From the NCBI GenBank assembly GCA_045862955.1, contig BTVI01000039.1:1-28674 (forward strand): a stretch of 28,674 nucleotides of DNA, given 5' to 3'. The stretch comes from Fimbriimonadales bacterium. Its GTDB lineage: Bacteria > Armatimonadota > Fimbriimonadia > Fimbriimonadales > JABRVX01. The notes under the pieces were generated by a model, which did no database searches, was not told the origin of the DNA, and saw only the letters and a list, made by a program, of their open reading frames with translations. Shown here in pieces: positions 2,553 to 26,757 of the stretch (positions are counted from its first letter, which is position 1; every line of letters starts with the position of its first letter). Both the position numbers and the translations under genes were made by a program.

Positions 2553-4742
2553 TCAGGTTTCATCCAGCCCATCAGATGCTCCAGTATCCTCTGGCGAATC
2601 AGTGTTGTTCTGGTCTTCACCCGCTAACGCCTCGAGTTCCGCTTTGCCCCACAGTACGATCCCGTTGTCATGGGCAAAGGCAATCGCGTCAGCGGTGAAG
2701 CCCGCTGGGCACGCGACGACAGGCGTGGTGCCGGCCAGCCTTTCTGGTATGGTACCGCGGAGTTCTCGAACGACGGCGACACCCACCGGTTGTGATAGGT
2801 TCTTGCACTGTATCATCAGCCTTGTCACAACACCTATTGCGTCGGAGCGCTCTGCTACGATGTCGATCCCACCGTCTCGCGACCGAGGCGTTAGGGTCAC
2901 ATTGAGGCCCTGCTCGCGCAGTCGCTCGGCTAGCCAATCCTCGAACTGCTCACCAGCCTGGTAGTGCCGAACGCGCTTCACCCGTGTTGGTGCCTCCAGA
3001 CCAAACAGCCCGAAGAGCTCACTTTCACTCAGTGCCGCAGTTAGCTCCATAGACGTATCATCAACGATCTCCTGGAAGAGCCGGCGCTTCTCCCTGAGCT
3101 TCGCCTCGATTCGCTCCTCGATCGTGTCGACACACACGTACTTGATTGCGGTCACGGGGTAGGTCTGACCCATACGGTGCGCACGGCCTTCCGCCTGATC
3201 CTCGACCGCAGGATTCCACCATCGGTCAAAGTGAAAGACGTATGAGGCAGTCTGAAGATTGAGTCCGAAACCACCGGCCCGCAGCGAAAGGATGAACAGC
3301 TTATGCCGGTCGTCTCGCAGGAACGCTTCGACCGCACGGCTCTTCTCTGCTGCCGACATGGCACCAGTGTACGTCAGGGGGTCGAATGCACTGAGACGCG
3401 CCGATAGCAACCCGACGCCGTAGCGCTCATCTGTGAACTGCGAGAACAGCAAGGCACGGTGCCCCTCACTACACAAGATCTCAAGCCGCTGTGCTATGTC
3501 CTCCAACTTGGCGGACTGGCCGGAGGATGGATCGCAGTTGCAGATCTGCTTCAGGTGGGTGATCAGCTCTAGTACGTGCGTAACGGTGACAGCGGCGTTC
3601 TCGCGAAGCCGAACAACGCCTTCTCGCTCTGCCAGATCGTATGTCCTCCTTTGTTCGGGTAGCAGCGCAATCGGCACTTCCACCACCGTCTTTGGTGGAA
3701 GGTCCTGCAAGACGTCTGCCTTTCTTCGTCGTAACTGCACGGCTGACAGAGTTTCTCGGACATCGTGCGCCACCACAGCATGAGCAGAGCGCCGCCCTGG
3801 GTCGGCGAGCAGGAAGTCCAGAATAGAGTGAAGGTCATCTACACGGTTCTCGAGGGGTGTGCCTGTGAGCGCCCACCGCCGATGCCGGGGAATGCGCTTG
3901 CATGCGATTGAGACGCGTGCCTCCCTGTTCTTGATCTTCGATGCCTCGTCTAGCACTACGACATCCCACGGTTCGCGTAGCACCGGGCTATTGTCCAGGC
4001 CAATAACATCCTCGCGCACGGTCTCGTACCCGGCAAGCTTGACGTGTGCAGGCAGTCGCCAAAGGGTGCCTCGCGCTGATGGGTCGCCCCGCACCGGCAC
4101 GACGGTAAGGTCGGGGGCCCAGAGACTGAATTCTCGAGTCCACTGCCCCAGTAGACCTGCTGGCGCAATCACGAGTGCGCGTTCGACCTCCTGCCTGTAG
4201 AAGAGTATCCTGAGCGCTGCTATCGCCTGAATCGTCTTCCCCAGTCCCATGTCATCGGCTAGCAGGAGCTCCCGCCTCTCTAGCAAAGCTTGCACCCCAT
4301 CAAGTTGATAGGATAGCAGAGGTGCGGGCCAATCTAACACTCCTGACGGAGCCAGAAGCGCATGGAGAGGCGGCTGGAGGATGGCTGCGAGTCTTCGCTC
4401 AAAGTCAAGCATCGACTCGTCGCCGCCAGGATGCTGTGGCTCTATGCGCACATCACCCTGAATGGAGTGTGTGATGGGCGTCCGCTCGCTGCAGGTTAGG
4501 TCGAAGCGGCCGATGCGGTGGCTGGTAGCGGAAGAAGCCGATAGCAGGTCCAGCCCTATGCGCGAAGCCGGACCGCATGGCTTCATGGCGGGGACCAATA
4601 TGGTTGGGGTGGGCAGACTGGATACGTCGCAGCGGGCACTCACACTAATTGGCTCAGACGGACCTGGACGCCAGTCTCGGATGAGCCCAAGAAGCGTCCA
4701 ACGGGGCTTGACATTGAGTGACGGTCGCTCCGCGGGTATCAC
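2553..4742 (-). CDS. SNF2-family (SF2) helicase/translocase fused to C-terminal Mrr-like restriction endonuclease domain (729 aa)
   Basis: SNF2 motifs: YQLDGV, LLADDMGLGKTIQ, VVLDEAS, ALTGTPLEN, LLFSQF, SLRAGGFGLNL, DRWWNPAVEDQAEGRAHRMGQ. C-terminal GEQFEDWLAERL...RDGGIDIV...IQCKN is the Mrr_cat D..QxK signature. GTG start overlaps the upstream TGA (GTGA). Confidence 0.92.
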   Translation of the reverse strand: MIPAERPSLNVKPRWTLLGLIRDWRPGPSEPISVSARCDVSSLPTPTILVPAMKPCGPASRIGLDLLSASSATSHRIGRFDLTCSERTPITHSIQGDVRIEPQHPGGDESMLDFERRLAAILQPPLHALLAPSGVLDWPAPLLSYQLDGVQALLERRELLLADDMGLGKTIQAIAALRILFYRQEVERALVIAPAGLLGQWTREFSLWAPDLTVVPVRGDPSARGTLWRLPAHVKLAGYETVREDVIGLDNSPVLREPWDVVVLDEASKIKNREARVSIACKRIPRHRRWALTGTPLENRVDDLHSILDFLLADPGRRSAHAVVAHDVRETLSAVQLRRRKADVLQDLPPKTVVEVPIALLPEQRRTYDLAEREGVVRLRENAAVTVTHVLELITHLKQICNCDPSSGQSAKLEDIAQRLEILCSEGHRALLFSQFTDERYGVGLLSARLSAFDPLTYTGAMSAAEKSRAVEAFLRDDRHKLFILSLRAGGFGLNLQTASYVFHFDRWWNPAVEDQAEGRAHRMGQTYPVTAIKYVCVDTIEERIEAKLREKRRLFQEIVDDTSMELTAALSESELFGLFGLEAPTRVKRVRHYQAGEQFEDWLAERLREQGLNVTLTPRSRDGGIDIVAERSDAIGVVTRLMIQCKNLSQPVGVAVVRELRGTIPERLAGTTPVVACPAGFTADAIAFAHDNGIVLWGKAELEALAGEDQNNTDSPEDTGASDGLDET

Positions 4743-5257
4743 GTCTCTGGTTGCGCAGTGCCGTAGGTCTCTGCAAGAGCGCGGCGTACTCGCTCAAAGG
4801 GCTCGCGCAGGAATCCTCGTTCGACGAGCTCACGCAACAGCAGGGTTGCCGGAGCGCCTTGGGATGGAGCATCGTTGACCCAGGCGAACTCGTTCACCCC
4901 TGATGACTCAGGCGGCGAGACCACGCAGGTTGGGATCAACGGCGCGACGTTCGTCCGCACATACTGCGGGGTTCCCAAGCCTTCCTCAACCACTAACAGG
5001 TCCGGCTCAGCGCGGCACGCCTCAAACAACGAGTGAGCCAGCGCGGCAGATCCTGCAGCCTCCACACCCGGTTCAGGCCACAGCAGACCGCTTGGCACCT
5101 CGATGGAATTATGAACGAACTCCACCGGCTGGCCGCGTCCATCAATCACCAACAGTCCAGCCAACAACTCCTTAGCAGATCTGCCAACGGTGACTAGGAG
5201 GTAGGCTGCTAGCGGCGCTGCGGTTGTGTGTGGTATGCGGTGATAAGGAATGGGCAC
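4739..5257 (-). CDS. Hypothetical protein (172 aa), possible RNase H-like/EndoV-like fold
   Basis: GTG start 6 nt after the upstream stop, and its stop overlaps the helicase start. Alternating beta/alpha pattern with 'LLAGLLVIDGRGQPVEF', 'PDLLVVEEGLG' and 'LREPFERV'. The fold call is inference. Confidence 0.75.
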   Translation of the reverse strand: MPIPYHRIPHTTAAPLAAYLLVTVGRSAKELLAGLLVIDGRGQPVEFVHNSIEVPSGLLWPEPGVEAAGSAALAHSLFEACRAEPDLLVVEEGLGTPQYVRTNVAPLIPTCVVSPPESSGVNEFAWVNDAPSQGAPATLLLRELVERGFLREPFERVRRALAETYGTAQPET

Positions 5258-5263
5258 TAAGTC

Positions 5264-6493
5264 TCACTCCGCCGAGGCTTCGTCGTCGTCGGATACGATT
5301 TCATCCTCTGAAAGCTCCCTGGTGTCCATGACAATCCCTTCATCCACGACCTCTCCGGCCGATCCGTAGAGCCTCTTAAGATCCCACTCTGTGATCCAGC
5401 GGCGAACCTGTGAGCGAACCGAGATGAAACCACCCTCCTGAGGCATGTGACGTGAGTCCCCCTCTTGCCAGTCATAGGCTTTGCAGTACAACTGATGCAG
5501 CGAGTACAGCGTCCGCTGGAGCTGGTCTGCAGTAGGATTGATCAATGGCACTCGCTCCTTCGCCAAGAGCTCGAGCCCAACTCGCGCGAAGTCTTGTTGC
5601 TCGGCGAAAAGCCCACCCATCGTGTCATCCAAGTGCAGGTGGTCCTGATACTTACGCCATATGTCGTCGACGGCCCCTGGCGTGAAGGCGAAGATAGGAT
5701 ACACTCCTATCCCTTGGCGTGCCAGTTGTGCCCACCATCCAATAGCCCAATAGGCCTCGAGCCGCTGCTTGCGAGGAAACCACACTAGTCTCTCCATCTC
5801 ATCGAAAAGCACCACCCAGCCTTTGCAGTCACAAGCTCGGTACAACTGAGATAGAATGACAAGGCGCTCGGGCGCGAGATGTTTGTTCTTCGGATGACTC
5901 AGGTCGTAGCCTTGGAGCTGCCCAATCTTTTTCAGCTTGGACCGAATCTCGGTCTTCTTCATCGGTTTGCCCTCAAAGTCTGCGAGGATCTTGCTTTGGA
6001 ATTCGGGATCGCTGCTGAACTCCTCATACAGTTGCAGCATCGCCACGAAACGCTCATGTATGTCGCTCCTTGCACTCGCCCACCGGCGCACCTCGCCGAA
6101 GCCGGCTGACTTCGCCCCGTACTTCGCCATCAGTTCTCTCAACGCCTGGCCCGTATAGCCTGGGGCCCTGGCAGTCTCTGCCAGGGCCTTTAGAACTACA
6201 TGAAGATTGCCTGGAGGTGTCTCGGGGCTTGCTACTACATAGCTGGTGACATACCCCCTATCCTGTGCCGTAGCTGCGATGTGGTTCAGCATGTGAGTTT
6301 TGCCTGAACCAAAACCACCTACTATCACCAGAGGGGCGACTGCCTCTCCGGCTGCGCACTTACCCAGGTCAGTGAGCACCCGCGCCTCGATCTCCACCTG
6401 GGACGTGCCGAGGGTGCTCGCGACGCTCGGTGTCGCGATGCCCGCACGGAGCGCCTCTATCGCTCTTCGAGCAAGCAGCCTCTCAGTTGTCAT
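5264..6493 (-). CDS. DUF2791 / BrxD-like P-loop ATPase (409 aa), intact motifs
   Basis: Start reassigned to ATG 6493 (ATGA overlap with the upstream stop; SD GAAGGAGG). N-terminal 'ARRAIEALRAGI', Walker A GGFGSGKTH (6296-6319), 'GYVTSYV' and Walker B 'GWVVLFDEME' are typical of DUF2791/BrxD. Confidence 0.85.
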   Translation of the reverse strand: MTTERLLARRAIEALRAGIATPSVASTLGTSQVEIEARVLTDLGKCAAGEAVAPLVIVGGFGSGKTHMLNHIAATAQDRGYVTSYVVASPETPPGNLHVVLKALAETARAPGYTGQALRELMAKYGAKSAGFGEVRRWASARSDIHERFVAMLQLYEEFSSDPEFQSKILADFEGKPMKKTEIRSKLKKIGQLQGYDLSHPKNKHLAPERLVILSQLYRACDCKGWVVLFDEMERLVWFPRKQRLEAYWAIGWWAQLARQGIGVYPIFAFTPGAVDDIWRKYQDHLHLDDTMGGLFAEQQDFARVGLELLAKERVPLINPTADQLQRTLYSLHQLYCKAYDWQEGDSRHMPQEGGFISVRSQVRRWITEWDLKRLYGSAGEVVDEGIVMDTRELSEDEIVSDDDEASAE

Positions 6494-7653
6494 AGGTCCT
6501 CCTTCAGGTGGCAAAGGATGCCTTCTGGGTTCCCTCTCTCGCCGCGTACCTCGTTCGCGATACGAGTTTGGAGCGCATCGTAGTCGCGATAGTTGCGAGG
6601 AGCAGCAGTATCGTAGTACCCTTCGGTAGTAAGTACGACAAGAAAGAGGCGACTGAAGAGCTCGATCTCGTCTAGGAACGCTCTTAGGAGATGCACCATG
6701 TGCATGTATGCCATGCCACTGTACGCCACTTCAGGTAGTTGGAACTTCTGGGTAATTGGGTCCTCGGTGCTAGACAACCGAGCAATCATGTCTACGAGCT
6801 GATCCGGCGGCGTTCCCCTCGTTATAGCGTCCTCAAGCTTATGCCGACGCTCACGCTCCCAAGCTACCTCGAGTTGGAGTCGGCGGCTATCGATCTGAGA
6901 ACGCGAGGGCTTCTTATACTCGTACGGACGGAAGTCGAGCAGGAGCAGGAGACCGGAGTACCCAGCCTTTGGCAGCCAGTGGCAGAGAGAAACCAGCATG
7001 TGACGGGCGTTTGATCGGCTGATCCGCCCGTAGATCTGATATCCCTCAAGGACTTTGCTGTCGCCAGGCTCCGCTTTGGCACCCAAGAGCCACCGCAACA
7101 CCACATCCTCGGTTGTCGGCAGATGAGAATCAGGCACAATTCGGTGGTACCCCAGAGCCGACACCGCAGCACGAAACTCCAATGCCATCGCCCGGTCCTG
7201 AACAATGTCAGCCCGTAGAGCACGCTTAAGCTCCGTCACGAAGACCTCGTGATCGAGGTCATTTGCTCTCAGGAACTGCGTAAGATCGCCGCCGACTAAC
7301 CAGTCCGACGGGATCACATAGCCAAGCTCGTGCATCTTTGTGCGAAGATGGCGGTCGGCAAGTGACCTCCAGTCGAACGACCGGGCGACTCCAAAGAAGA
7401 CATTCTCGATCCGATGGTAGTCTGGTTTTCGTCCGTCAGGACAGAGAAGTGCCGGGTCGAGAAATACCACATGCATGTCGCGGCTGCGGGCATCCTCTTT
7501 CAACGAATTAATAACTCCGTTGATTACGGAATCCGCACCACTGACAAACCTCACTGCAGAACCACCACTGGGCACGTAATCTGCGAGGTACTCCCTGGAG
7601 ATGAGATCGAGCCATTCGGTGAGAGTGATGCGCATGGATTCGGAGATGTCCAT
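6490..7653 (-). CDS. DUF2791 / BrxD-like protein with degenerate P-loop (387 aa)
   Basis: ATG with GGAGG SD. DUF2791-like segments 'EYLADYVPSGGSAVRFVSG', 'ISRSNARHMLVSL...AGYSGLLLLLD' and 'YDALQTRIANEV'. There is no GKT/S, and Walker B lacks the Glu. Confidence 0.75.
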   Translation of the reverse strand: MDISESMRITLTEWLDLISREYLADYVPSGGSAVRFVSGADSVINGVINSLKEDARSRDMHVVFLDPALLCPDGRKPDYHRIENVFFGVARSFDWRSLADRHLRTKMHELGYVIPSDWLVGGDLTQFLRANDLDHEVFVTELKRALRADIVQDRAMALEFRAAVSALGYHRIVPDSHLPTTEDVVLRWLLGAKAEPGDSKVLEGYQIYGRISRSNARHMLVSLCHWLPKAGYSGLLLLLDFRPYEYKKPSRSQIDSRRLQLEVAWERERRHKLEDAITRGTPPDQLVDMIARLSSTEDPITQKFQLPEVAYSGMAYMHMVHLLRAFLDEIELFSRLFLVVLTTEGYYDTAAPRNYRDYDALQTRIANEVRGERGNPEGILCHLKEDL

Positions 7654-7670
7654 CCCTGCCCCCTCCAGGT

Positions 7671-8489
7671 CTACACGAAGTGAACTCCCAGGAATCGGAG
7701 CTCGCGGCCTTCAGCGTCTCGCACAATGATCATGTCTTGCTGCCTTGAGGTTCCTTGCTGAAACTCGAAGTGGAGCCTGCGACCGTCTCGGGTCACTTGC
7801 TCGCCGGACTGGTGAAGGGCAGTTATGCTCTCTGCAAAAGCTGATTTGGAGTTCTCCTTCCGCCAGCCAGGAGCCAAGCAGAAGACCTCGTAGGCTTCCT
7901 TCAAGCCCAAGAGCTGGGTCTGCGGATTACGTCTCGCTTTCCATGCGCCGTACAGTGCCTCGAGCAACTCCGCAGTCTTAGCTTCCTGAAGCCGCCGGCG
8001 CGTTGACGCCAACCTATCCGCAACGAATGAGGGCCTGATCTCTGGCACGCGCTTCTTGCCCTGTGAAAGAGCCCCGTCTGCGGGTCGGGCGCGCAGGGCG
8101 ACCGGCGTACTCACCAACTCGCTTCCTTCAATACGCGCTCGCATACCGTGCCTCTCTTGCAGCGCACTGGCAATCTCCTTCTGCCAGTGGCCTTCCTGGA
8201 GGTATCGCTCGACATCAAAGCTCCATCTGGATAAGGCCGCTACCGCTTCCTGGAGACGCGTTGCGGCATCACGTGCAGTCTCAGCGTTCTTTTTGATCTG
8301 CGCCATGTGGCCCACCGCGCAAGACTTCCGCCACTGCTTCAGCGCGCTACTGACCTTGGCTGCTTGGCTCAAAGCATCCTTCAGTCCGTCCTCAAGCTCC
8401 GCCAAAGCCGGCTCAAGGAACAGCTCACCCTGGATTGGCTCCTGGTCAGCCGTAACAGTGTCCGATGCAAATAGACCACCCGCTTCCAC
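7671..8489 (-). CDS. Hypothetical protein (272 aa), N-terminal helical/coiled-coil region; first gene of the DUF2791-SNF2-Mrr operon
   Basis: GTG start with GGAGG upstream; stop 17 nt before the next ATG. Amphipathic helical N-half ('LEPALAELEDGLKDALSQAAKVSSALKQW'); alpha/beta C-half. Confidence 0.8.
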   Translation of the reverse strand: MEAGGLFASDTVTADQEPIQGELFLEPALAELEDGLKDALSQAAKVSSALKQWRKSCAVGHMAQIKKNAETARDAATRLQEAVAALSRWSFDVERYLQEGHWQKEIASALQERHGMRARIEGSELVSTPVALRARPADGALSQGKKRVPEIRPSFVADRLASTRRRLQEAKTAELLEALYGAWKARRNPQTQLLGLKEAYEVFCLAPGWRKENSKSAFAESITALHQSGEQVTRDGRRLHFEFQQGTSRQQDMIIVRDAEGRELRFLGVHFV

Positions 8490-8746
8490 TCCCGTACAAT
8501 CCCTCCGTCATACAGGATACGGGCAGGTTATTCGAGGTTGGCTTGCGGACTCCTTCTTCGCTCCTCGACCAGGGCAGCACCCCCTGTGACGAGCCTCCGA
8601 AGGCGGCGGTCCGACATCCGGCGAGTCGCTAACGTCGCGGTCGAGGCCTATCCCGCCCCGGAGCTAGTAAACGGACGTGCGGGCGCTCTGGTCGGAGTTG
8701 CACTCTTGAATCTGGCTATTCGCGACATGGCCGCGGCACCGCACAA

Positions 8747-8790
8747 CCCTCACCCCAGCCCTCTCCCTTGGGGAGGGAGAGGGAGGGGGC
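8747..8790. repeat. REP-like palindrome (family D, CCCTCACCCCAGCCCTCTCCC...GGGAGAGGG) downstream of gpmA
   Basis: CCCTCTCCC/GGGAGAGGG stem. Reverse-orientation relatives at ~28190-28238 and ~28613-28660. May also act as a 3' stabiliser or terminator for gpmA. Confidence 0.7.
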
Positions 8791-8824
8791 TCTTCCCTTT
8801 TGAAGTGGTAAGTAGGGGGTGGGA

Positions 8825-12285: not shown

Positions 12286-13143
12286 TGGATTCCTGTCTTC
12301 GCGGGAAGGACTTGTCCGTGCCCCGGCGCGGTCCTTGGGTTCGCTTCGTGACCGCGGTGCTGCCAACCGGCGGACGCGGGCCGGGGCATGGGACGTCCAG
12401 GCATGGAAACCTCGGTTGCCTCGACGTTCGGCTACTCGCGTGGTCGCTGCACGATAGCGTGGCGCCAGGCGGCAGCCGAAACGTCTAGGCATGGAGTGCG
12501 CGGCGACGAGGTCATGCTTCGACAGGCTCAGCATGACGAAGCTCAGCAGGACGGTATTGGTTGCGACCGGTGGACGGCTTCCGATGACATCGTTCGGGCT
12601 CGACACCTGGCAACGCCAACACCGAACACCCCTGACCGTCTACCTTTCCCGCCGCACCGGCTACCACCACACCCCTACCCATCACACCTTACCCGTCACA
12701 CCCTACCCGCCGCACCGGCTACCCACCACACCCTTCCCGTCACACTCCTACTGGTCACACCCTTCCCGCCACACCCTTCCCGCCGCACCGGCTACCCGTC
12801 ACACCCTTCCCGCGACACTCCTACCCGTCACGCCCTTCCCGTCACACTCCTACTCGTCATGCTGAGCTTGTCGAAGCATGCAACCGCAAGCCGCAGACGT
12901 TGCATCGGAGGCCGCCACCATGCCGACGGCGAGGGCGCACAGACGCGGGGGTTCCGTCTCTCGCCCCGGCGCGGTCCTTGGGTTCGCTTCGTGACCGAGG
13001 TGACGCCAAGTGGCGGACGCGGGCCGGGGCATGGAGAAAACGTCCAGGCATGGAAAACCTCGGTTGCCTCGACGTTCGGCTGCTCGGGTGGTCGCTGCAC
13101 GATAGCGTGGCGCCAGACGGCAGCCGAAACGTCTAGGCATGGA
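12286..13143. repeat. Composite repeat island between convergent genes (families A, B, C, an ATTCCC-type REP and a C-rich minisatellite)
   Basis: TGGATTCCTGTCTTCGCGGGAAGGAC at ~12286-12311. Family B at 12318-12389 and 12961-13032. Family C (TGCCTCGACGTTCGGCT...CAGCCGAAACGTCTAGGCA) at ~12417-12491 and ~13065-13139. Family A at 12513-12537 and inverted at 12856-12880. Degenerate 14-16-bp ACACCCTTCCCGTC units at ~12640-12858. Confidence 0.88.
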
Positions 13144-14116: not shown

Positions 14117-14472
14117 TCTCGTACACCTTTTGGCGCCGCATCCTCCCGGTCCCTCGGAGCGCGATGCCGCACATTCTCTAAGTATACGGACGGGTGAAGC
14201 CTCTCAAATCGTTCTAAGTAAAGTGATTCCAGCAGTTTGCCCTATGCGAGGGACAGTGCGGGCGAGCACTTGCCTAATACTGCGGGAACGGCTAGAATAG
14301 GCGGCGCTGAGCGTAACGAATGGGTTCGCCCGACCGTACAGGATCGCGTGTCGCCTGCGCCAGAGACGTCGAATTCCCGAAAATCGAACCGGATAGCGTC
14401 TCGTGGGCGCAGCATGAGGCGCCGGCTTGCCGTCGCCATAACCCGGTACAGGGCGCACGGATGGAGGTCTTA

Positions 14473-15411
14473 ATGCGTTGGTTGGCTGCAGTTTTGGTTT
14501 GTGCAGGGCTCGTGGCGGCAGGCCACTCGCAGCAGCCCGACAAGGATTATAGGTTCCAAGACTACGATCAGATCTTCGTGTCGCTGGCTCAGGAGCCGGA
14601 GCGAAACATCCGGGCGACAGTCGGCGGGGATGGTTACATCGATTATCCTTACATCGGCCGGGTGCTGGTTCGCGGGCGGACGGTAGCCGAGGTTCAGGAG
14701 GAGATCGTCAGCAGGCTGAAGGCGGGTGGCTACTTCGTAGCTCCCGAGGTTAGCATCACGATCGAGTCGTTCCGCAAGCCGCTGGCAACGGTGGTCGGTC
14801 AAGACACGGTGCAAAGGCCGAATGCGTACGAGTTCAGGCCAGGGCAACGTCTGCGCGACCTCATCGGCATGGCAGGCGGTCCGATCTACGGCGCCGCAGA
14901 CACCCGACGGGCTGTTCTTCAGCGCAAAGACAGCAACGAGCGCATCCCTGTGAACCTGCGGTTCCTTCTACAGGACGTGCGGGATGACCAGAACTACGAA
15001 CTGAAGGACGGGGACGTGCTGACCGTTCCGCGGGACGAGCAGAACTTCATAACCGTCATCGGGGAGGTCAACAATCCAGGGCCACAGGTGTACCGCGAAG
15101 GGATGAGAGTGACGGATGCGATTGCGGCGGCCCGCGGCGGCATTCCAGAGCGGGGACGGCTGAGCGCCATCACTCTGCTCAGGAAAGACCCGTACGACCC
15201 CGCCAAAGTGACCCAGATTCCGATTAACCTGTTCGATGCGATCAAGGACATCAATAAGGACTTGGTCTTGCAGAAGATGGACACGCTGGTGGTGCCCCGA
15301 ACGAACAACATCGACCTGCGCAACATCCGCGACCTCGCGAACGCAATTTACATCATCACTATCACGCTTCGGAATCGGCCTTTCGACGCCGTGACCGACG
15401 CACTGCGATAG
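14473..15411 (+). CDS. wza: Polysaccharide export protein, Wza/Poly_export + SLBB domains (312 aa)
   Basis: ATG 14473 preceded by GGAGG (alternative ATG at 14461). Signal peptide; 'VGGDGYIDYPYIGRVLVRGRTVAEVQEEI...YFVAPEVSI'; SLBB repeats 'LKDGDVLTVP' and 'VIGEVNNPG'. Confidence 0.85.
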   Translation: MRWLAAVLVCAGLVAAGHSQQPDKDYRFQDYDQIFVSLAQEPERNIRATVGGDGYIDYPYIGRVLVRGRTVAEVQEEIVSRLKAGGYFVAPEVSITIESFRKPLATVVGQDTVQRPNAYEFRPGQRLRDLIGMAGGPIYGAADTRRAVLQRKDSNERIPVNLRFLLQDVRDDQNYELKDGDVLTVPRDEQNFITVIGEVNNPGPQVYREGMRVTDAIAAARGGIPERGRLSAITLLRKDPYDPAKVTQIPINLFDAIKDINKDLVLQKMDTLVVPRTNNIDLRNIRDLANAIYIITITLRNRPFDAVTDALR

Positions 15412-15431
15412 GTTAGGTAGGGGGCGGCTCA

Positions 15432-17669
15432 GTGCAAAGTGGAATTCTTCAGTTCCTAGCGCCAGTTCGACGCCGTTGGTGGTTGGTTGCCATCATCGTA
15501 ATCCCCATCTGCTTGATCACGGCGGCGATCTCCATCTTCTCTCCCACGATGTATGACGGCTTCGTGACCATTACCGAGAAGCGGGTGGACCCACGCACGA
15601 ACGTGGAGATTTACCCGACCATGGGGGTGCAGACCGTGGACGTGGAGACGAGGCTGAATAACCTCATCAACACGATCACGAGCTGGACCGTGTTGCAGAA
15701 GACGTTTCTCGATCTCGTGCAGGCAGGCGAGTGGAAGCCCAAGTCCAATCCGGCTGCCGGCACGAAGCAGTTCAACGAAGCCATTCTGGAGTTCACCTCT
15801 GCGGTGGACATCGAGCCGGTACGTGGTTCAGAGCTGATCCGAATCCACTTCAAGGCGGATTCGCAGGACGCTGCTATGGCTGGCATTAGCCGGCTCTACA
15901 GGAACTTCCGCGACCACTACATCGAGCTGAACAGCGCCGCGGGTCTGAGAGAGCGCGAGTTCATCGAGGCGATGCTGGCGAAGGCGAGGCAGGACTTTGC
16001 AGACGTCGTGGAGCGAAGAAAGAACTACACGGCGCAGAACGAGGCGGTGGCGCTGCAAGCTTCTACATCGAGCCTCGTGAACCTGCGCGGCGAGACGCTT
16101 TCGCAGCTGAACCAGGCCGAGCGCGACTTGGCAATGTCGCAGCGCTCGCAGGCAGTGTATCAAGCCGTAAAAGCCGAAGGCCTCAAGCAACCTCTCATCC
16201 CGACCGCCACGGCGCAGGCAATGAACCCGGTCTATGATCAGATCAAGCGCCAGCTTGCATCCGTCGAGGCGGAGCTGGCGGCGCGTCTCCAGACGTATGG
16301 CCCTAACCACCCTCGCATGCGCGAGCTGGCGGAGCAGAAGCAGGCGCTGATGGAGAAAGAGGCGGAGTTGCTCCGAGCGAAGGAGGCATACCTTCTATCT
16401 GGGAAGTCCGAAACGCGAAGCTCAGAGTTGGCGGAGGCCGAAAGGAACGTCAACCTTACCGAAGCGAGCATCGTCGCTGCACGGGCCAGGAAGGCCGTAC
16501 TCGAGTTACAGCTGGAGGACATCGAACGGAAGCTGCAGCAGGTGCCCGAGAAGGAGCGCGGCCTCGCTTTGATCGAGGCGGAGTACGTCTCACGCCAACG
16601 CGACCTCGACTTGCTCCAGACTCGTCTGACCGAGGCGAAGATCAAGGAAGAGGACGCCAAGAACGTCCGCCTGACCATGGTGGACGATGCATTCGTCCGG
16701 GTGATTCCGAAGAAGACGTTGATCAAGATTGCCATCGCGTTCGGCCTCAGCTTCGCTTTGTCTGTTGGCTTGGTCCTCGTTCTCGGTCAGTTCGACGCCG
16801 GTGCATACAGCCCGACGCAGGCGGAGAACGCTCTGGGCTACCCGGTCATCGGATCGCTTCCACGCACTCGGCAGGCACAGCTCCCGAAGACGACCGAGAC
16901 GGCATCACCGCTCGCGTCTTCTTTCCAAGTGTTGTCCACAAACATCGTGGAGATGCGGAATCGGTTGCAAGGGCCGGCTATCGTGGTTGCGAGCGCGGAA
17001 CCGAATGTCGGGCGCAGCTCGGTGGCTGCGAATCTAGCGGTCAGTCTGGCGAGGGACGGTTCGCGGGTCGTGCTGGTGGATGGCGACATGCGTGAGCCGT
17101 CTCTCCACCGCCACTTCGACGTGGAGAACCGCGCTGGCCTAGCTGAGATCCTCGCTGGTACTGCAGCTATCGAGGATGTGTGCATGCCGACGCCGGTGGA
17201 CGGGCTGCTGTTGATTACTGCGGGCAAGCCGCCGGCCAACCCGGTCAGGCTGCTGCGCGACGTCGGGCTAGAGCGCTTCATCGAGCAGGTGTCGAAGGCT
17301 GCGGACTTCGTGGTTTTCGACAGCCCGGCGGGCTCTGCGTTTGCAGATGCCGACGTGCTTGCTGGAACGCTTCAGAACGTGCTGCTCGTTCACGAAGCAG
17401 GTTCTCCGGCAACGATCAGCGAGATGGAGTTCCACAAGCGACTGGAACGCCTGGGCATCAACATCATCGGAGTGGCACTGAACAAGGTTCGGCCCGAGGA
17501 CTGCTCCGGCTACATCACCTACCGACGCGCTTATGAGGCCTCGCTAATGGCGCGCGAGATGACGAGCACACCTGCCGAGAGGCCTGCACTCGACAAGCCC
17601 AAACGGGAGAAAGCCGAGGCACCGCGTCGGCCAGAGGTCGAGGCGGACGACGAGGACGACGAGGTTTAG
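15432..17669 (+). CDS. wzc: Polysaccharide co-polymerase / BY-kinase family protein (Wzc/GumC-like, 745 aa) with atypical Walker A
   Basis: N-terminal TM helix, long coiled-coil periplasmic region with YGPNHP, second TM, then a P-loop domain: SAEPNVGRSS, VVLVDGDMR.P, FVVFDSP, GVALNKV. Confidence 0.88.
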   Translation: MQSGILQFLAPVRRRWWLVAIIVIPICLITAAISIFSPTMYDGFVTITEKRVDPRTNVEIYPTMGVQTVDVETRLNNLINTITSWTVLQKTFLDLVQAGEWKPKSNPAAGTKQFNEAILEFTSAVDIEPVRGSELIRIHFKADSQDAAMAGISRLYRNFRDHYIELNSAAGLREREFIEAMLAKARQDFADVVERRKNYTAQNEAVALQASTSSLVNLRGETLSQLNQAERDLAMSQRSQAVYQAVKAEGLKQPLIPTATAQAMNPVYDQIKRQLASVEAELAARLQTYGPNHPRMRELAEQKQALMEKEAELLRAKEAYLLSGKSETRSSELAEAERNVNLTEASIVAARARKAVLELQLEDIERKLQQVPEKERGLALIEAEYVSRQRDLDLLQTRLTEAKIKEEDAKNVRLTMVDDAFVRVIPKKTLIKIAIAFGLSFALSVGLVLVLGQFDAGAYSPTQAENALGYPVIGSLPRTRQAQLPKTTETASPLASSFQVLSTNIVEMRNRLQGPAIVVASAEPNVGRSSVAANLAVSLARDGSRVVLVDGDMREPSLHRHFDVENRAGLAEILAGTAAIEDVCMPTPVDGLLLITAGKPPANPVRLLRDVGLERFIEQVSKAADFVVFDSPAGSAFADADVLAGTLQNVLLVHEAGSPATISEMEFHKRLERLGINIIGVALNKVRPEDCSGYITYRRAYEASLMAREMTSTPAERPALDKPKREKAEAPRRPEVEADDEDDEV

Positions 17670-17714
17670 TTGGTTTGGGTGGCGCCGCGGCACACGCGGC
17701 GCCACCACCTATGC

Positions 17715-18395
17715 ATGAATATGAGACTGACAAAGGGAGCGGCGCAGGCACAGACGGTCTCCGTTTTCGAAGGCCGGATACCCTATCGCCATGTGCAGTA
17801 CCGGGTGTTCAAACGGGTGCTGGACGTGACGGGCTCTGCCGTTTTGCTGTTACTGCTGTTCCCTCTCATGGCGGGCATTGCGCTGGCCATCAAGTTGACT
17901 TCTCCCGGCCCGGTGATCTTCAAGCAGCCCCGAGTGGGACTTCGTGGGCGGACCTTTATGTTTCTCAAGTTCCGCTCGATGTACATGGACGCGGAGCAAC
18001 GGCTTCGAGAAGTCGCCGGGTTGAACGAGAAGGACGGGCCTATCTTCAAGATCAAGAACGATCCGAGGGTCACGCCGATTGGTCGTACGCTGCGCAAGTT
18101 CAGTCTGGACGAACTCCCGCAACTGATCAACGTGTTGCGCGGGGAAATGAGCTTGGTAGGACCGCGCCCGCCCCTACCGCGTGAGGTGGAGAAGTACGAC
18201 GAGGAGAGTTACGTCCGGCTCTGCGTGACGCCCGGGATCACCTGCCTGTGGCAGATCTGCGGCCGCAGCGATCTGTCTTTCGCAGACTGGGTGCGGCTGG
18301 ACAAGTTCTACATAGAGCACATGTCATTCTGGCTCGATCTGAAGATTTTGCTGTTGACCATTCCTGCGGTGCTGAAGGGACAAGGGGCATACTAG
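17715..18395 (+). CDS. Bacterial sugar transferase (priming polyprenyl-phosphate glycosyl-1-phosphate transferase)
   Basis: KRVLD, SPGPVIFKQPRVG, KFRSM, DPRVTPIGRTLRKFSLDELPQLINVLRGEMSLVGPRP, PGITCLWQI. Start uncertain (ATG 17715 or 17721). Confidence 0.92.
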   Translation: MNMRLTKGAAQAQTVSVFEGRIPYRHVQYRVFKRVLDVTGSAVLLLLLFPLMAGIALAIKLTSPGPVIFKQPRVGLRGRTFMFLKFRSMYMDAEQRLREVAGLNEKDGPIFKIKNDPRVTPIGRTLRKFSLDELPQLINVLRGEMSLVGPRPPLPREVEKYDEESYVRLCVTPGITCLWQICGRSDLSFADWVRLDKFYIEHMSFWLDLKILLLTIPAVLKGQGAY

Positions 18396-18444
18396 CCGGG
18401 TGGGACAGTGGTGCTCATCGCGGGCAACGGTATAGGGGTATCGG

Positions 18445-19395
18445 TTGAATCGAGTATTGGTAACGGGCGGAGCCGGGTTCATCGGAGGTTTCGTCGTCGA
18501 GCAGCTGCTCAGTGCTGGTAAGGCCGTTCGGGTGCTGGACAATCTGTCCACGGGTTCGACGGACACGCTGGACGGTCTGGTCGGCGACTTGGAGTTCCAG
18601 CGTGGGGACATCCGCGACGAAGATGCGGTTCGTGTCGCTGTCGAGGGAGTGGACGGCATCATTCATCTGGCTGCAGACATCTCGGTTCCCGATTCGCTGA
18701 GCAATCCCCTGCACACCTACTCGGTCAATGTGATGGGCACTCTAACAGTGCTGGAAGAGGCTCGTCGCGCGGGTGTGAGGAGTTGCGTGATAGCAAGCTC
18801 GGCTGCCGTGTATGGGGAGCCAGTAGGGAGCAAGCAGTCCGAGGACTCCCCGACGATCCCCCTGTCGCCCTACGGTGCCAGCAAGCTGGCGTGCGAGCAG
18901 CTCGCCTCGCTGTACAGCCGCACGTTTTCGGTGCCGACGCTGTGTCTTCGGCTGTTCAACGTGTACGGGCCGCGGCAACGGCACGACTCGCCTTATGCTG
19001 CCGTGATTCCCATCTTTCTCTCCCGGATGATGCAAGGGCTGCCACCACAGGTGTTCGGTGACGGCCATCAGCGCCGCGATTTCGTGTTCGTCGGCGACGT
19101 GGCCCGAGCGCTGATCGGTGCACTGGGGCGTCCCGACCTCGCTCCCGGCGTGTACAACGTGGCATCGGGCATGAGCTGCAGCCTGCTGGACCTCATTGCG
19201 GAGATCAACCGCAGCTTGGGCACGTCGCTGCAACCGGAGTTCTTACGGGAGCGCGAGGGAGACATACGAGAGAGCGTCGCCGACATCTCACGCGCCCGCC
19301 ACGAGCTGGGCTTTTCGCCTGCCGTGTCGCTGGCTGAGGGAATCTCGCGAATCGTTCACGAGAGCGTGGTCCCGACGGAGGCGGTCGGTGGCTGA
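18445..19395 (+). CDS. NAD-dependent epimerase/dehydratase (UDP-Glc/GlcNAc 4-epimerase-like, 316 aa)
   Basis: TTG start. Motifs VTGGAGFIG, HLAA, SSAAVYG, SPYGASK, RLFNVYGPRQ, GDGHQRRDFVFVGDV. Confidence 0.9.
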   Translation: MNRVLVTGGAGFIGGFVVEQLLSAGKAVRVLDNLSTGSTDTLDGLVGDLEFQRGDIRDEDAVRVAVEGVDGIIHLAADISVPDSLSNPLHTYSVNVMGTLTVLEEARRAGVRSCVIASSAAVYGEPVGSKQSEDSPTIPLSPYGASKLACEQLASLYSRTFSVPTLCLRLFNVYGPRQRHDSPYAAVIPIFLSRMMQGLPPQVFGDGHQRRDFVFVGDVARALIGALGRPDLAPGVYNVASGMSCSLLDLIAEINRSLGTSLQPEFLREREGDIRESVADISRARHELGFSPAVSLAEGISRIVHESVVPTEAVGG

Positions 19396-20323
19396 AACTG
19401 CGCAAGCGGCGAGAGAGCAGGTCATCATGGGCGCAAAGCCTTTGCCCCTTGCCTTGTTCGTGGCTATGCGGCCCAGGCAGTGGGCGAAGAACTTCCTGCT
19501 GTTCGGCGGGCTCATCTTCAGCGGGAGCTTTGCGAAGCCCGAGCTGGTGCTTCGCTCGTTCGCAGCCTTCGCCCTGTTCTGCGCGCTGTCGAGCGGGGTG
19601 TACCTTCTGAACGACGTGCGCGACCGTGAGCGGGACGCGTTGCACCCCGAGAAGAGCAGACGGCCCATCGCGTGCGGCCGTGTCTCCGTCGGTCTCGCGG
19701 TCGGCATGGCAGTGGCGCTCTTGGCGGTCGGCATCGCGCTCGGCTTCGCTCTCGACATAGGCTTCGGCGCCGTTGGACTTCTGTATCTCGTGCTGCAAGG
19801 CGCATATACCTACGCGCTAAAGCAGGTCGTGATCCTCGACGTCTTTCTGGTCGCAGCCGGCTTCGTGCTTAGAGCTCTTGCCGGCGCAGTTGTTCTGGAC
19901 GTACGGTTTTCGCCTTGGCTGTTTCTGTGCACGATGATGCTCGCACTCTTCTTGGGGTTCGGCAAGCGGAGGCACGAGTTGCTGTCGTTGGGAGGGGAGA
20001 GCGGCGGGCACCGGAACGTGCTTAGGGAGTACACCGCCAGCCTGCTGGATCATGCGGTCGTGGTGAGCGCAGCGTGCACCGTAATGTCCTACGCGCTATA
20101 CACGATCCAGTCTACGACGGGTCGGTCCAACCCGTATCTGATGCTGACCATTCCGTTCGTTCTCTACGGGGTACTAAGGTACCTATACCACCTATACTCC
20201 CAGCGTGAGGGGGGCAGCCCGGACAAGCTGCTATTTCAGGATCCTCATCTCTTGCTGACCGTTGGTTTATGGGTCCTGGTCGCCATTCTCGCGATGTTGC
20301 TGGGCAAGACGGGAGTGGAATGA
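19388..20323 (+). CDS. UbiA-family decaprenyl-phosphate phosphoribosyltransferase-like protein (~311 aa)
   Basis: GTG 19388 with GGAGG SD, overlapping the epimerase stop (alternative ATG 19427). Motifs MRPRQWAKN, YLLNDVRDRERDALHPEKSRRPIACG, GFVLRALAG, KRRHEL, YGVLRY and P..LLFQD are typical of the DPPR-synthase subfamily. Confidence 0.88.
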   Translation: MAETAQAAREQVIMGAKPLPLALFVAMRPRQWAKNFLLFGGLIFSGSFAKPELVLRSFAAFALFCALSSGVYLLNDVRDRERDALHPEKSRRPIACGRVSVGLAVGMAVALLAVGIALGFALDIGFGAVGLLYLVLQGAYTYALKQVVILDVFLVAAGFVLRALAGAVVLDVRFSPWLFLCTMMLALFLGFGKRRHELLSLGGESGGHRNVLREYTASLLDHAVVVSAACTVMSYALYTIQSTTGRSNPYLMLTIPFVLYGVLRYLYHLYSQREGGSPDKLLFQDPHLLLTVGLWVLVAILAMLLGKTGVE

Positions 20324-20324
20324 C

Positions 20325-20876
20325 GTGGTCAATGGTAGTCTACCGCCCAGCATGACGGAGATGACCGGGGTCCGAGCGTGGGTACAGCGGCAGCCGGAGG
20401 CTCGCCGCCAGTTCGTGAAGTTCGCGGTGGTCGGTGCTTCGAGCACTGTGCTGGATCTGCTGACGTATAAGCTCTTGTGGTTCGTCTTGCCGGCGATTCC
20501 TTATGCGATGGCTCGGGCAGCGTTCTTTCTGACCGACCCGGTGGGCATCGCGCTGGACCTGCAGAGGACCGCTGCGGCGATGGCGAGTGTGATCTCCAGC
20601 GGAGTGGTGGGCACCGCCAACAGCTTCTACTGGAACCGCAGGTGGACGTTTCGCGCAATCGAGCATGACTTGGCAATCCGACAGATACGCAGGTTTCTGT
20701 TCGTCTCGTATACGGGCATGGCTCTGAGGGCGATGATCGTCTATGGGCTGATGCCACCGACAGGGGTCCGACCGTCGCCGATTCAGGTGCTGATTTATCA
20801 GCTCATCGCTATCATGATCGTCATGTTCTGGAACTTCTTCATGAACCGCCTATGGACATTTCGCAAGAACCGATAA
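20325..20876 (+). CDS. GtrA-family membrane protein (lipid-linked sugar flippase-like)
   Basis: QFVKFAVVGASSTVLD, NSFYWNRRWTF and WNFFMNRLWTF are GtrA signatures. Start uncertain (GTG 20325 or ATG 20352). Confidence 0.88.
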   Translation: MVNGSLPPSMTEMTGVRAWVQRQPEARRQFVKFAVVGASSTVLDLLTYKLLWFVLPAIPYAMARAAFFLTDPVGIALDLQRTAAAMASVISSGVVGTANSFYWNRRWTFRAIEHDLAIRQIRRFLFVSYTGMALRAMIVYGLMPPTGVRPSPIQVLIYQLIAIMIVMFWNFFMNRLWTFRKNR

Positions 20877-21763
20877 CGGAAGAGACCGCCGTAGAGCAGG
20901 GCAAGCCTGAGAAGCGCAAGTTTCAGCTCAAGATCCCAGAGCTGGAGACGCGTGATTGGGTGCTGATCGCGCTGCTCTTGTTCGCCGCCATTGCTCCCTT
21001 TTGGAAAATGTGGGAGTATGCCTGGCAGCAGTGGTTCAAGGATACGGGCTACTACCAGCATGGCATCTTCGTACCGCTATTGGTCGGCTACATGCTGTGG
21101 CGCCGCTGGGACGATCTACGTCAGGTAAGTGTGCAGCCTGCCACATGGGCGATTGCCATCGTCGTGCTTGGCGCGCTGGTGGGCTGGTGGGGCAGTCGTG
21201 TAGACAGCCAGGTGGTTCGGCAGTTCGGCTTCATGGTGTTCCTGTTCGGCTCGTGCCTGTATGTGCTGGGAACAAAAGTGACCCGCGCTCTGCTCATTCC
21301 GATCATTCTCGTTGGCTTCATGCTGCCTCTCCCCGACCTCGTTTTCAGTCAGATGACGAACTCGGGTCAGGTGTATTCCACCAAGTTAGCGGTCAAGATG
21401 CTCGACTTCTTAGGCTACGAGCCGCACATGGTAAACAACTCGGTGATAACGCTGGACAACTACCAGATGGAAGTCGGGGTGCCCTGTAGCGGTTTCAAGC
21501 TAACGATGGCGCTCTTGATGTTCGGGTTGTTCTTCTGTTCGATAGCGAGGTTCAACTGGTGGCGGTCGATCATCATGTTCCTCGTTCTGGTTCCCGTCGC
21601 GCTCATCGTGAACAGCTGGCGCGTCGGGATGATCGGCATCTTCGGCGAACACTTCGGCGACGCCGCTGGCAAACTGTTTCACGACTGGGGTAGCTACCTG
21701 GAGTTAGTGTTGGCATACGGTGCGCTATTCGGACTTGCGAGGTTGCTCGGATGGAAAGAGTAA
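20852..21763 (+). CDS. Exosortase/archaeosortase family protein (303 aa)
   Basis: Multi-TM protein with W....YYQHG..VP, catalytic Cys (VGVPCSG), Arg (NSWRVG) and His (FHDW). Confidence 0.9.
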   Translation: MDISQEPITEETAVEQGKPEKRKFQLKIPELETRDWVLIALLLFAAIAPFWKMWEYAWQQWFKDTGYYQHGIFVPLLVGYMLWRRWDDLRQVSVQPATWAIAIVVLGALVGWWGSRVDSQVVRQFGFMVFLFGSCLYVLGTKVTRALLIPIILVGFMLPLPDLVFSQMTNSGQVYSTKLAVKMLDFLGYEPHMVNNSVITLDNYQMEVGVPCSGFKLTMALLMFGLFFCSIARFNWWRSIIMFLVLVPVALIVNSWRVGMIGIFGEHFGDAAGKLFHDWGSYLELVLAYGALFGLARLLGWKE

Positions 21764-22407
21764 GAAAGCACGTAGTGCACATCTTTGTCGTCATGGCGTT
21801 GTGCACGATCGCCGTCGCCGTGACCCCGGTTCGACGGTACCAGGCACCCAATCAGGAGTACTACGTCGAGCGAGTCCCGAAGAGCGTCGGCGGTTTTTAC
21901 GCTCGCCACACCAGCGACATGAGGGAAGTGTGGGACGCACTCCACCCAGATGGCATCGTGTGGTCGGTGTATGAGGGTCCGGGCGTTCCGTGGATCGATT
22001 TCGTGTTTCTTTCCGGGCGGTCGTCTGATGCATTTCACGACCCACAGCTCTGCTTCCGCAACCAGGGCTGGAATCTGGACCCGCCGGCGGTGCGAAGCTT
22101 GCGGATCGATGCGCTGGGCAAGGATATACCGGTCAACGTGCTATCCATGACCAATACGAGCGGGGTGAAGGCCACTGCGATCTACTTCTTCATCGGCCCG
22201 TTCGGCTACACGGCCAATCCGTTCGTGATCAAGATGTCGCTGTTCGCTGCGAAGAGCCTCGGGATATCGGCGGGCCAGGGCTACTTCATCCGGTTCATCG
22301 TGCCCACCGAGACGTCGCAAGAGGATGATTTGGAGAAGATCAGGAGCTTTGCATCCGAGATATTTGCTGTGTTGAAAACCACGTTGCCGGAGGCGATCAA
22401 GAGCTAG
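21751..22407 (+). CDS. Exosortase-associated EpsI-family protein (218 aa)
   Basis: Overlaps the exosortase 3' end. N-terminal anchor; HDPQLCFRNQGW (H.P..C...QGW) motif; YFF near the C-terminus. Confidence 0.8.
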   Translation: MERVRKHVVHIFVVMALCTIAVAVTPVRRYQAPNQEYYVERVPKSVGGFYARHTSDMREVWDALHPDGIVWSVYEGPGVPWIDFVFLSGRSSDAFHDPQLCFRNQGWNLDPPAVRSLRIDALGKDIPVNVLSMTNTSGVKATAIYFFIGPFGYTANPFVIKMSLFAAKSLGISAGQGYFIRFIVPTETSQEDDLEKIRSFASEIFAVLKTTLPEAIKS

Positions 22408-22416
22408 GGTCCGCCC

Positions 22417-23982: not shown

Positions 23983-25187
23983 TTCCCGGCGAACTGCCCC
24001 CGCTCCGTCTCCTACTCGTCACCCGCGCGTATACAACCCATCGAGTCGGCGGGATGGAGAGGCACGCAAGGGACGTGGCGGAGGGGTTAGCGGCGCGCGG
24101 GCACACGGTGACAGTCTGGACTACCTCCCATCCCACTGAGTCTTCGTGCCAGTCGAATGGCAAAGTCGCCATTCGTTACTTCGCAGATACTGCACCCGGG
24201 CTCCATTCCCGGGAGTTCAATGAGGCGGTTACCCAGGCGCTTGCCGGCGACCCTTCCTTCGATCTGATGTTAGTGGAGTCTCGATCCGCGGCGATGGCCC
24301 TCGAGAAGCTGCGTCCGCCTCAGCGTCCGCCGGCTGTCATGTTCATTCACGGTACGGAGCTGTCCGAAGAGCTATCCATCATCGCCTTCGATCGGGGTCC
24401 GGGGCGCTATCTACGACTAGTAACACAGCGCGTGCCCGCAATGCTACGCTCGCTCACGCGAGCGCGGCAGAACTTCGCCGCAGAGAGAGTGGTGTGCGTC
24501 AGCCAGTACGTGGCCGATCACCTGGCAGCGGTTTATCTTGCTCCTTCCGAGAACCTGCGCGTGGTTAGGAATGGCATACCGCTGCCGCCCATGCCCTCTG
24601 GATCCGATCGGCTGGATGCACGACGACAGCTCGGACTGCCGAGCGACGCTCTGATCGCTTTGTGCATCGGTCGACTCGCGCCGGACAAAGGATTCGACCT
24701 CGCCATATCGGCCATCGGACGCATCCATCGAGAGGCACCGTGCCTGCTGCTCGTCGTGGGTGGCGGGCCCGACGAGCAACGGCTCCGTTCACTGGCCACT
24801 TCCCTGGGACTCGACGAGACCGTTCGGTTCGCCGGCGAGGTCCCTCAGACGGCGACGCTACCGTACTACACTGCTTCGGACATTCTGCTGCTGCCAGGTG
24901 TGCGGTACGAGGGCCATCCCTATGTGCTGGTCGAGGGGGCGGCCATGGGGCTCGCGGTGATTGCATCGGATCGCGCAGGGCTCGGTTCCGAACTAGCCGG
25001 CGAGCAGATGGCACTCACCATCCGTCCTGGCAGTGTGGACGACCTCGCCGACGCACTGAAGGCACTGCTGACCTCCGAAGAACTGCGCCGTAAGATGGGT
25101 GGCGCTCTGCGGAGTTACGCAGAGCGCCACTACACACTCGATGCGATGTTGGACGGCATCGAGGCCGTTATGTCCGAGCTACTCTAG
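23979..25187 (+). CDS. Glycosyltransferase family 4 (GT-B) protein (402 aa)
   Basis: GTGA overlap with the upstream gene. Motifs GGMERH, VCVS, VVRNGI, IGRLAPDKG, VGGGP and EGHPYVLVE (EX7E). Confidence 0.9.
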   Translation: MIPGELPPLRLLLVTRAYTTHRVGGMERHARDVAEGLAARGHTVTVWTTSHPTESSCQSNGKVAIRYFADTAPGLHSREFNEAVTQALAGDPSFDLMLVESRSAAMALEKLRPPQRPPAVMFIHGTELSEELSIIAFDRGPGRYLRLVTQRVPAMLRSLTRARQNFAAERVVCVSQYVADHLAAVYLAPSENLRVVRNGIPLPPMPSGSDRLDARRQLGLPSDALIALCIGRLAPDKGFDLAISAIGRIHREAPCLLLVVGGGPDEQRLRSLATSLGLDETVRFAGEVPQTATLPYYTASDILLLPGVRYEGHPYVLVEGAAMGLAVIASDRAGLGSELAGEQMALTIRPGSVDDLADALKALLTSEELRRKMGGALRSYAERHYTLDAMLDGIEAVMSELL

Positions 25188-26656: not shown

Positions 26657-26757
26657 ATGCTCCTCCGCTTCCTCTCTCGAGGCACCTCGCGGTCCATGTC
26701 GGCCGCACTCACCCGCTTCGGCAGGACCGGGACCGCCTCCTGCAGAAGCTGGGAAAG

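Follow-up and report, generated by a model that had tools for sequence, protein, structure and literature searches.

The window analysed here, a stretch of 28,674 nt from a Fimbriimonadales bacterium (contig BTVI01000039.1, assembly GCA_045862955.1; phylum Armatimonadota), carries on its minus strand an operon of five genes, labelled A to E in reading order (2553..8489, Table 1). A preliminary description of the sequence had proposed it as an undescribed anti-phage system made up of a hypothetical gene, two DUF2791 genes, one of them dead, a small unknown gene and an SNF2-Mrr fusion. The operon was found to belong to a real, widespread and unnamed cassette, consisting of an A-B-C core with an ATPase split between two proteins and of swappable superfamily 2 (SF2) motors. 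The five co-oriented, translationally coupled genes of that description were confirmed, both in their open reading frames (ORFs) and in their junctions (17-nt gap between A and B, ATGA overlap between B and C, 6-nt gap between C and D, and GTGA overlap between D and E). The whole operon was spanned by single contigs from two other sequencing studies, with no internal indel listed, which rules out an assembly artefact as its origin, and since the gene order recurs widely the operon is not a product of chance.

Table 1. Coordinates of the operon genes and of the adjoining intergenic region in the window
Feature	Position	Strand	Description
Gene A	7671..8489	-	272 aa, unnamed family
Gene B	6490..7653	-	387 aa, BrxD/DUF2791-like AAA+ paralogue
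Gene C	5264..6493	-	409 aa from ATG, BrxD/DUF2791-like AAA+ ATPase
Gene D	4739..5257	-	172 aa, predicted RNase H-like fold closest to endonuclease V; catalytic residues absent
Gene E	2553..4742	-	729 aa, SNF2 motor and Mrr-type nuclease domain
Intergenic region, gpmA-like gene to A	8490..8824	.	likely promoter location

Distribution and architecture of the cassette

Gene C had matches in 54 of the 301 host-phylum genomes, and these reached E<=1.5e-20 in 47 genomes (48 places). The weak matches comprised one contig-end piece and seven places, the six readable ones of which were other DUF2791 cassettes. A pattern scan of GTDB representative genomes recovered at least 572 relatives, the best 80 of which were all metagenome-assembled and belonged to Armatimonadota, Chloroflexota, Nitrospirota, Actinomycetota, Acidobacteriota, Binatota, Gemmatimonadota and other phyla. 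No relative was detected among 72,556 plasmids (PLSDB) or 50,697 phages (INPHARED); together with the metagenomic origin of the best 80, this is perhaps why the cassette is unnamed. The cassette was not found described in the openly accessible papers searched.

A total of 127 C-gene loci were classified, and after removal of seven duplicates 120 non-redundant loci from more than 10 phyla remained; because this sample draws on a single phylum and on the 80 best GTDB relatives, it is biased, and the counts are not population frequencies. B preceded C in 119/120 loci and A was present in 112/120 (111 by script, plus L081), while six of the other eight loci ended less than 1 kb upstream. In 89/120 loci C was followed by an SF2 motor gene or by D at the end of a contig: D plus SNF2 (n = 44, of which 17 had the Mrr domain and 27 lacked it, a few of the latter being cut by contig ends), SNF2 without D (n = 6), D at a contig end (n = 3), and an XPB/Rad25-like SF2 helicase (n = 36, of which 27 had an unannotated gene of ~600 aa upstream). 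No recognisable helicase followed C in 24 loci despite at least 3 kb of sequence, their motifs being intact, and the seven remaining loci had too little downstream sequence for classification. The conserved unit is A-B-C; D-E is its commonest and most widely scattered partner, yet exchangeable. Conservation of the gene order across phyla, which the preliminary description had put forward as a check, was supported, but a fixed five-gene system was rejected; the SNF2-Mrr fusion is likewise a feature of E in this locus and of a minority of the D plus SNF2 loci.

On a quick tree of 123 C proteins the XPB type formed essentially one clade, whereas the D plus SNF2, Mrr and helicase-less states were scattered, with 16, 13 and 15 state changes, respectively (at least 8, 6 and 8 of them forced by well-supported branches). 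D plus SNF2 therefore looks old and repeatedly trimmed. Among the 34 five-gene loci, whose kin are not independent, the pairwise identities of A, B, C and D co-varied (Spearman 0.78-0.86), with lower values for E (0.42-0.52).

Some architectural variants were also observed. In loci L082-L129 (e.g. L093:6773-12868 and L105:6762-12983), mostly actinobacterial, the ~600-aa unannotated gene, A-B-C and the XPB-like helicase occurred in this order, and the best PADLOC model for this helicase was PbeA, a partial match. The collections of known systems and families used throughout were PADLOC-DB 2.0.0 of 2023, NCBIfam 20.0 and Pfam, which cover systems named before these releases. L139, which lies outside the 120-locus count, carried C and a helicase in a single 1101-aa frame. 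Inserts between C and D (L054:3410-4745, L068:11250-15351 and L058:10228-11265) contained PIN-domain genes, a cyclase-ATPase-tetratricopeptide repeat protein and an unannotated 345-aa gene.

Proteins encoded by the cassette

Both B and C exceeded the Pfam gathering cut-off (22.2 bits) of PF10923 BrxC_BrxD, with 24 and 53 bits and partial coverage only, in agreement with the two DUF2791 genes first described. Profile-profile comparisons identified them as paralogues (probability 95.5) and related them to six intact family members from other cassettes (probability 99.8 for B and 99.9 for C), in which Walker A, Walker B and a YxALxxR motif are all found in one chain. Here the motifs are divided. 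C of this copy has Walker A (GFGSGKT, K65) and Walker B (LFDE, D231 E232), neither of which is present in B, and its GxGK, DE and sensor-II-like R360 were invariant in the family (119/119). The Walker A position of B reads GGSAVK, no conserved GK[ST] column being present in 252 covering rows; the Walker B Asp is kept without the catalytic Glu, and the protein terminates soon after the last core strand, with no C-terminal lid. B carries, however, the YxALxxR motif that profile alignments did not find in C (R364; Arg in all 232 rows covering the site, of 260 aligned), and this motif aligned with RRGLxSYxALxxR of the intact single ATPases (probability 99.8). Judging from its sequence, B is more than the dead ATPase of the preliminary description, since it keeps an invariant arginine-finger motif missing from its partner. 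From their positions, the Arg of B would be the arginine finger and R360 of C would be sensor II.

The column of C equivalent to the finger held R in 60, K in 34 and another residue in 24 of 118 sequences. This copy has Thr there, and the loss is accordingly complete in this C but only partial across the family. Natural fusions of B followed by C were recovered among 150 listed B relatives (five full-length, one truncated and one doubtful, P0009). The simplest reading would be a B-C heteromer with one composite site. Weak IstB and DnaA matches of C fell in the P-loop region, and a PDB sequence search with the C profile gave nothing significant beyond P-loop echoes. An unlike cassette was seen in L143, L146 and L147, where an unknown 290-aa gene is accompanied by two DUF2791 ATPases, both with Walker motifs but with YxALxxR only in the first, a DEAD/Lhr-like helicase being next in L146 and L147; it is possible that this arrangement represents an intermediate stage of the motif split.

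Gene A had no match in Pfam, PADLOC or NCBIfam. Its model (predicted local distance difference test, pLDDT, 90.5) comprised a helical hairpin (25-87), a small beta domain (101-150) and an alpha/beta domain (~170-272), and the order of secondary-structure elements in the last of these may resemble a winged helix. Fold searches against PDB matched the hairpin alone, in a generic way, and those against BFVD returned no match at E<=0.001; PDB sequence searches with profiles of A and of its C-terminal domain gave nothing significant. In L087:3082-4335 and L095:6301-7506 an extra gene between A and B ended in a second copy of the A C-terminal domain.

Gene D, described at first as a small unknown, indeed had no Pfam match, but the structure search with its model (pLDDT 91.7) placed endonuclease V (EndoV) first (E 4e-7), followed by UvrC, Archaeoglobus 2qh9 and PIWI. 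The fold assignment comes entirely from this search: the D profile scored 22.8 (probability 4.3) against 27 EndoV sequences, not a significant value, with 2 of 30 block-shuffled controls scoring higher, and nothing significant was obtained in a PDB sequence search. D shares with EndoV and UvrC the RNase H-like fold and echoes of the GLL, PD-hydrophobic and C-terminal EPxxR motifs. It is shorter than EndoV, and neither the catalytic set, described as Asp43/Asp110/His214 (PMC13091555), nor the PYIP wedge (PMC4650699) is conserved in it. Strand 1 reads G/A-Y/F-L, and of 60 sequences 7 or 6 had Asp at the two candidate columns for the strand-4 end; these registers against EndoV were assigned by eye, guided by motifs and by a weak alignment. 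As modelled, D is an EndoV-like fold without catalytic residues, likely an adaptor or nucleic-acid sensor.

All the strong D matches in the 301 phylum genomes (34/34) lay within 3 kb downstream of a C match, and no D match was present in the 12 phylum genomes with a helicase-less locus. Eleven of 14 weak D places were fetched: eight preceded an SNF2 gene without A-B-C and three had no SNF2 gene. The former (L166-L171, L174 and L175) are two-gene cassettes of a distant D-like gene and SNF2, with Mrr in L174 and L175, and several of their D-like proteins retain the Asp at the end of strand 4.

E matched the Pfam domains SNF2-rel_dom, Helicase_C and Mrr_cat (72 bits), arranged as a variable N-terminal arm (~1-110), Walker A (163-170), DEAS (265-268), motif VI (519-526) and Mrr (597-706). 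The PD-(D/E)xK motif of the Mrr type was intact (E601, D627, Q645-C-K647), as was E...D...QxK in 14/17 relatives with the Mrr domain. In five loci without D, the SNF2 Walker A lay 39-59 codons from the preceding stop, compared with 81-205 codons in 35/36 loci with D and 429 in the remaining one, which has an insertion; this count leaves out seven loci whose motif is a variant. In L079, which has a fused D fragment, the distance was 102 codons. The N-terminal arm and D were therefore lost jointly, and D probably docks on the arm.

Genomic setting, defence association and rival explanations

The operon is flanked by a phosphoglycerate-mutase-like (gpmA-like) gene on one side and an STN-domain gene on the other. 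At 58.6%, its guanine-cytosine (GC) content lay below the 62.7% of the genome and within the lowest 0.9% of 1454 windows of equal size; it was low as well in the sister species G301, where the operon occupies the same site. Protein identities between the two species were 57-78% for the operon and 80-96% for four flanking genes; synonymous divergence (dS) ranged from 1.45 to saturated in the operon and from 0.5 to 0.9 in the flanking genes, with nonsynonymous divergence (dN) of 0.15-0.32 in the operon. These values fit allele replacement at a fixed site, with a signal blurred by saturation and codon bias. Gene C of G301 (L165:8817-10074) was split by a frameshift at a short duplication, either a pseudogene or an assembly error.

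Upstream of A, the intergenic region showed no minus-strand sigma-70 consensus, and promoter and terminator scan counts were at chance level; the five contigs from one RNA run that fell within the operon or touched its edge were short and of low depth, and do not demonstrate transcription. There were no tRNA genes in the window and, among the repeats listed, no flanking direct repeats or terminal repeats at the operon ends. Elsewhere in the window, a short element 3' of the gpmA-like gene (8740-8800) was matched by many unrelated contigs and is likely a dispersed repeat. Short intergenic repeat families with ~85-nt and 151-nt spacing, some inverted (1-683, 1502-1819 and 12315-13143), and a tandem array of 14-15-nt units (12610-12860) were REP-like, and an ordinary exopolysaccharide cluster (export protein, chain-length kinase, sugar transferases, exosortase and an O-antigen ligase-like gene) occupied 14320-28089.

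For the enrichment beside defence genes that the preliminary description had put forward as a check, 150 of the 204 ORFs that flank the loci or are inserted in them were truncated to 420 aa and scanned against PADLOC, using as control 105 of 122 ORFs located beside EndoV and gpm genes (17 marker genes or near-duplicates were dropped). Any match at E<=1e-10 was found for 19/150 flanks and 5/105 controls (p 0.048), and matches of at least 100 bits for 11/150 and 1/105 (p 0.017). When generic ATP-binding cassette and kinase matches were removed, strong matches numbered 9/150 and 0/105 (p 0.012), and corresponded to Cas3, DarT, AbiEii, SoFic, a short-Argonaute partner, two PDC-S01, a DrmD-labelled model and NERD-UvrD. 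The enrichment is thus present but only modest, because the cut-offs were post hoc and six of the nine strong matches came from phyla absent in the control. Other defence-like signs were the ZorD-like architecture of E, the presence in 47/301 phylum genomes, the partner modules lost repeatedly along the C tree, the low GC, the synonymous divergence from G301, which exceeds that of the flanking genes, and the PIN genes between C and D in L054 and L068.

On balance we regard it as probable that the operon serves as a defence against invading DNA, in which a heteromeric B-C ATPase, together with A, loads or triggers a swappable SF2 motor. B and C would form one AAA+ ATPase, C contributing the ATP-binding motifs and B the arginine-finger motif for trans-activation, and A may be a DNA-binding or scaffold subunit. 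The SNF2 motor of E would be loaded or activated by B-C and A, with D as a putative adaptor docked on the arm of E that may sense abnormal DNA, and cutting would fall to the Mrr domain; where Mrr is missing or the helicase is of the XPB type, the motor would act with no nuclease fused to it. The target would presumably be phage. The cassette would then represent one BrxD/SngB-type ATPase split into a finger-bearing half and an ATP-binding half, and because of this split the helicase-loader hypothesis is directly testable with single mutations (B R364, C K65 and C E232) and the natural fusions. A more elaborate version, which is tentative and in its full detail doubtful, would be a new anti-phage family whose ATPase, resembling the origin recognition complex (ORC) or a clamp loader (B finger, C ATP site, A DNA contact), loads interchangeable SF2 motors, while a dead EndoV, D, senses abnormal bases such as inosine and licenses SNF2-Mrr cutting. 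Phages with fully inosine-substituted genomes are described in PMC13091555, and a dead EndoV acting as immune sensor would, if true, be a new way of detecting modified phage DNA.

Several observations weigh against a role in defence. Besides the post hoc thresholds and the phyla missing from the control, clear defence genes made up only 6% of the flanking genes scanned, and this copy sits between housekeeping-type genes at the site shared with G301. Neither a methyltransferase nor another self-marking gene was found travelling with the cassette, relatives were lacking from the plasmids and phages searched, Mrr was absent from 27/44 D plus SNF2 loci, and 24 loci had no helicase despite intact motifs. 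As for the split, C in other clades may keep some finger function, given the R or K in 94/118 sequences.

A rival explanation would be DNA repair or genome maintenance, where D would recognise damaged or branched DNA in the manner of EndoV, A-B-C would load an SNF2 or XPB-type motor to clear or open the site, and Mrr would be an occasional add-on; we consider this explanation rather unlikely. D does have an EndoV/UvrC fold, but it has neither the catalytic residues nor the PYIP wedge of EndoV. In favour of repair, the other motor found with the core is an XPB/Rad25-like helicase, Mrr is missing from the majority of loci, and the neighbouring genes are mostly not of the defence type; against it, B, C and E have defence proteins as their nearest characterised relatives. 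The dN values well below dS in all five genes, a chromosomal location in the collections searched and the shared site in the sister species also favour it, but the cassette occurs in only ~16% of the phylum genomes, its partners were repeatedly lost or exchanged, and its GC is low in both species.

It is improbable that A-B-C and D-SNF2 are two independent modules that merely tend to co-locate. The preliminary description had stated that its proposal would fail if the two modules occurred only separately and lacked enrichment in defence islands. Distant D-like and SNF2 pairs lacked A-B-C in 8/11 weak D places and A-B-C stood alone in 24 loci, but all 34 strong D matches adjoin C. The weak co-variation of E with C would fit independent modules, although the identities of D follow those of A, B and C more closely than those of E, translational coupling joins the genes, and one clade has a different SF2 helicase in the same position. 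Among the outcomes examined that the description had named as refuting it, such as a match of the whole locus to a named system, none was found outright. A mobile-element remnant or helper, with an IstB/TnsC-like ATPase pair and a decayed RNase H-fold transposase, is largely excluded and very improbable: the weak IstB and DnaA matches of C, the integrases and IstA lower in the fold list of D and the low GC are outweighed by a D without an acidic catalytic triad, operon ends without terminal repeats among those listed, the same site in the sister species, and intact genes conserved across phyla, none of them on plasmids or phages.

Comparison with known systems

The preliminary description had placed the locus outside BREX (bacteriophage exclusion) and Shango, which was borne out, and Zorya could be excluded as well; judged by its gene content, the cassette belongs to none of BREX type 2, Shango or Zorya. 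The BrxD-family ATPase of BREX, of the ORC-Cdc6 type, is tightly linked to the SF2 helicase BrxHI and has been proposed as its loader or activator (PMC12839542). The cassette resembles BREX type 2 in the linkage of a DUF2791/BrxD-family ATPase with an SF2 helicase, but it has two motif-splitting paralogues instead of one intact ATPase, an SNF2 or XPB-like motor (SNF2-type in E) instead of the Ski2-like BrxHI, and the additional genes A and D. No PglW, PglX, PglZ or BrxC was detected among the 28 window ORFs or the 150 flanking ORFs of relatives, nor PglZ in the 97.55%-complete genome, and the BrxD equivalog scores (27 and 44 bits) were far from the cut-off of 350. BREX also offers a parallel to B in BrxB/iSTAND, described as a P-loop-dead, fast-evolving ORC-Cdc6-type domain with minimal conservation (PMC12839542). 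Both are P-loop-dead domains without a C-terminal helical bundle, located beside an active relative, but B is conserved, belongs to the BrxD family as a paralogue of the gene next to it, and carries an arginine-finger motif that does not vary.

Shango consists of the TerB-domain protein SngA, a single intact ATPase, SngB, and the helicase SngC. The cassette shares with it the plan of an unrelated first gene, a DUF2791-type ATPase and an SF2 helicase with no methyltransferase, as well as a weak SngB match to C (E 2.8e-5, 21 bits, 81 residues, 11-91). It differs in its two split-motif ATPase paralogues, its SNF2-Mrr helicase and the presence of D, and A had no TerB or SngA match in PADLOC, Pfam or NCBIfam, fold searches with A being dominated by its hairpin. 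SngC was absent among the 25 best of 47 PADLOC families for E. A 2012 comparative study of Ter systems reportedly discussed DUF2791 ATPases with helicases.

With type I Zorya the likeness lies in E, which combines an SNF2 motor and a C-terminal Mrr-like nuclease and was matched over residues 142-707 by the PADLOC ZorD model (E 2e-66). E nevertheless lacks the ~500-residue N-terminal domain of Escherichia coli ZorD (PMC11946911) and scored 163 bits against the NCBIfam ZorD cut-off of 1500, and neither A-D nor the flanks matched ZorA, ZorB or ZorC. Full-length E. coli ZorD is described as autoinhibited, its C-terminal nuclease activity requiring the ATPase motif (PMC11946911). By analogy, the locus would function as a dyad of the BrxD-BrxHI or SngB-SngC kind to which a ZorD-like effector has been added.

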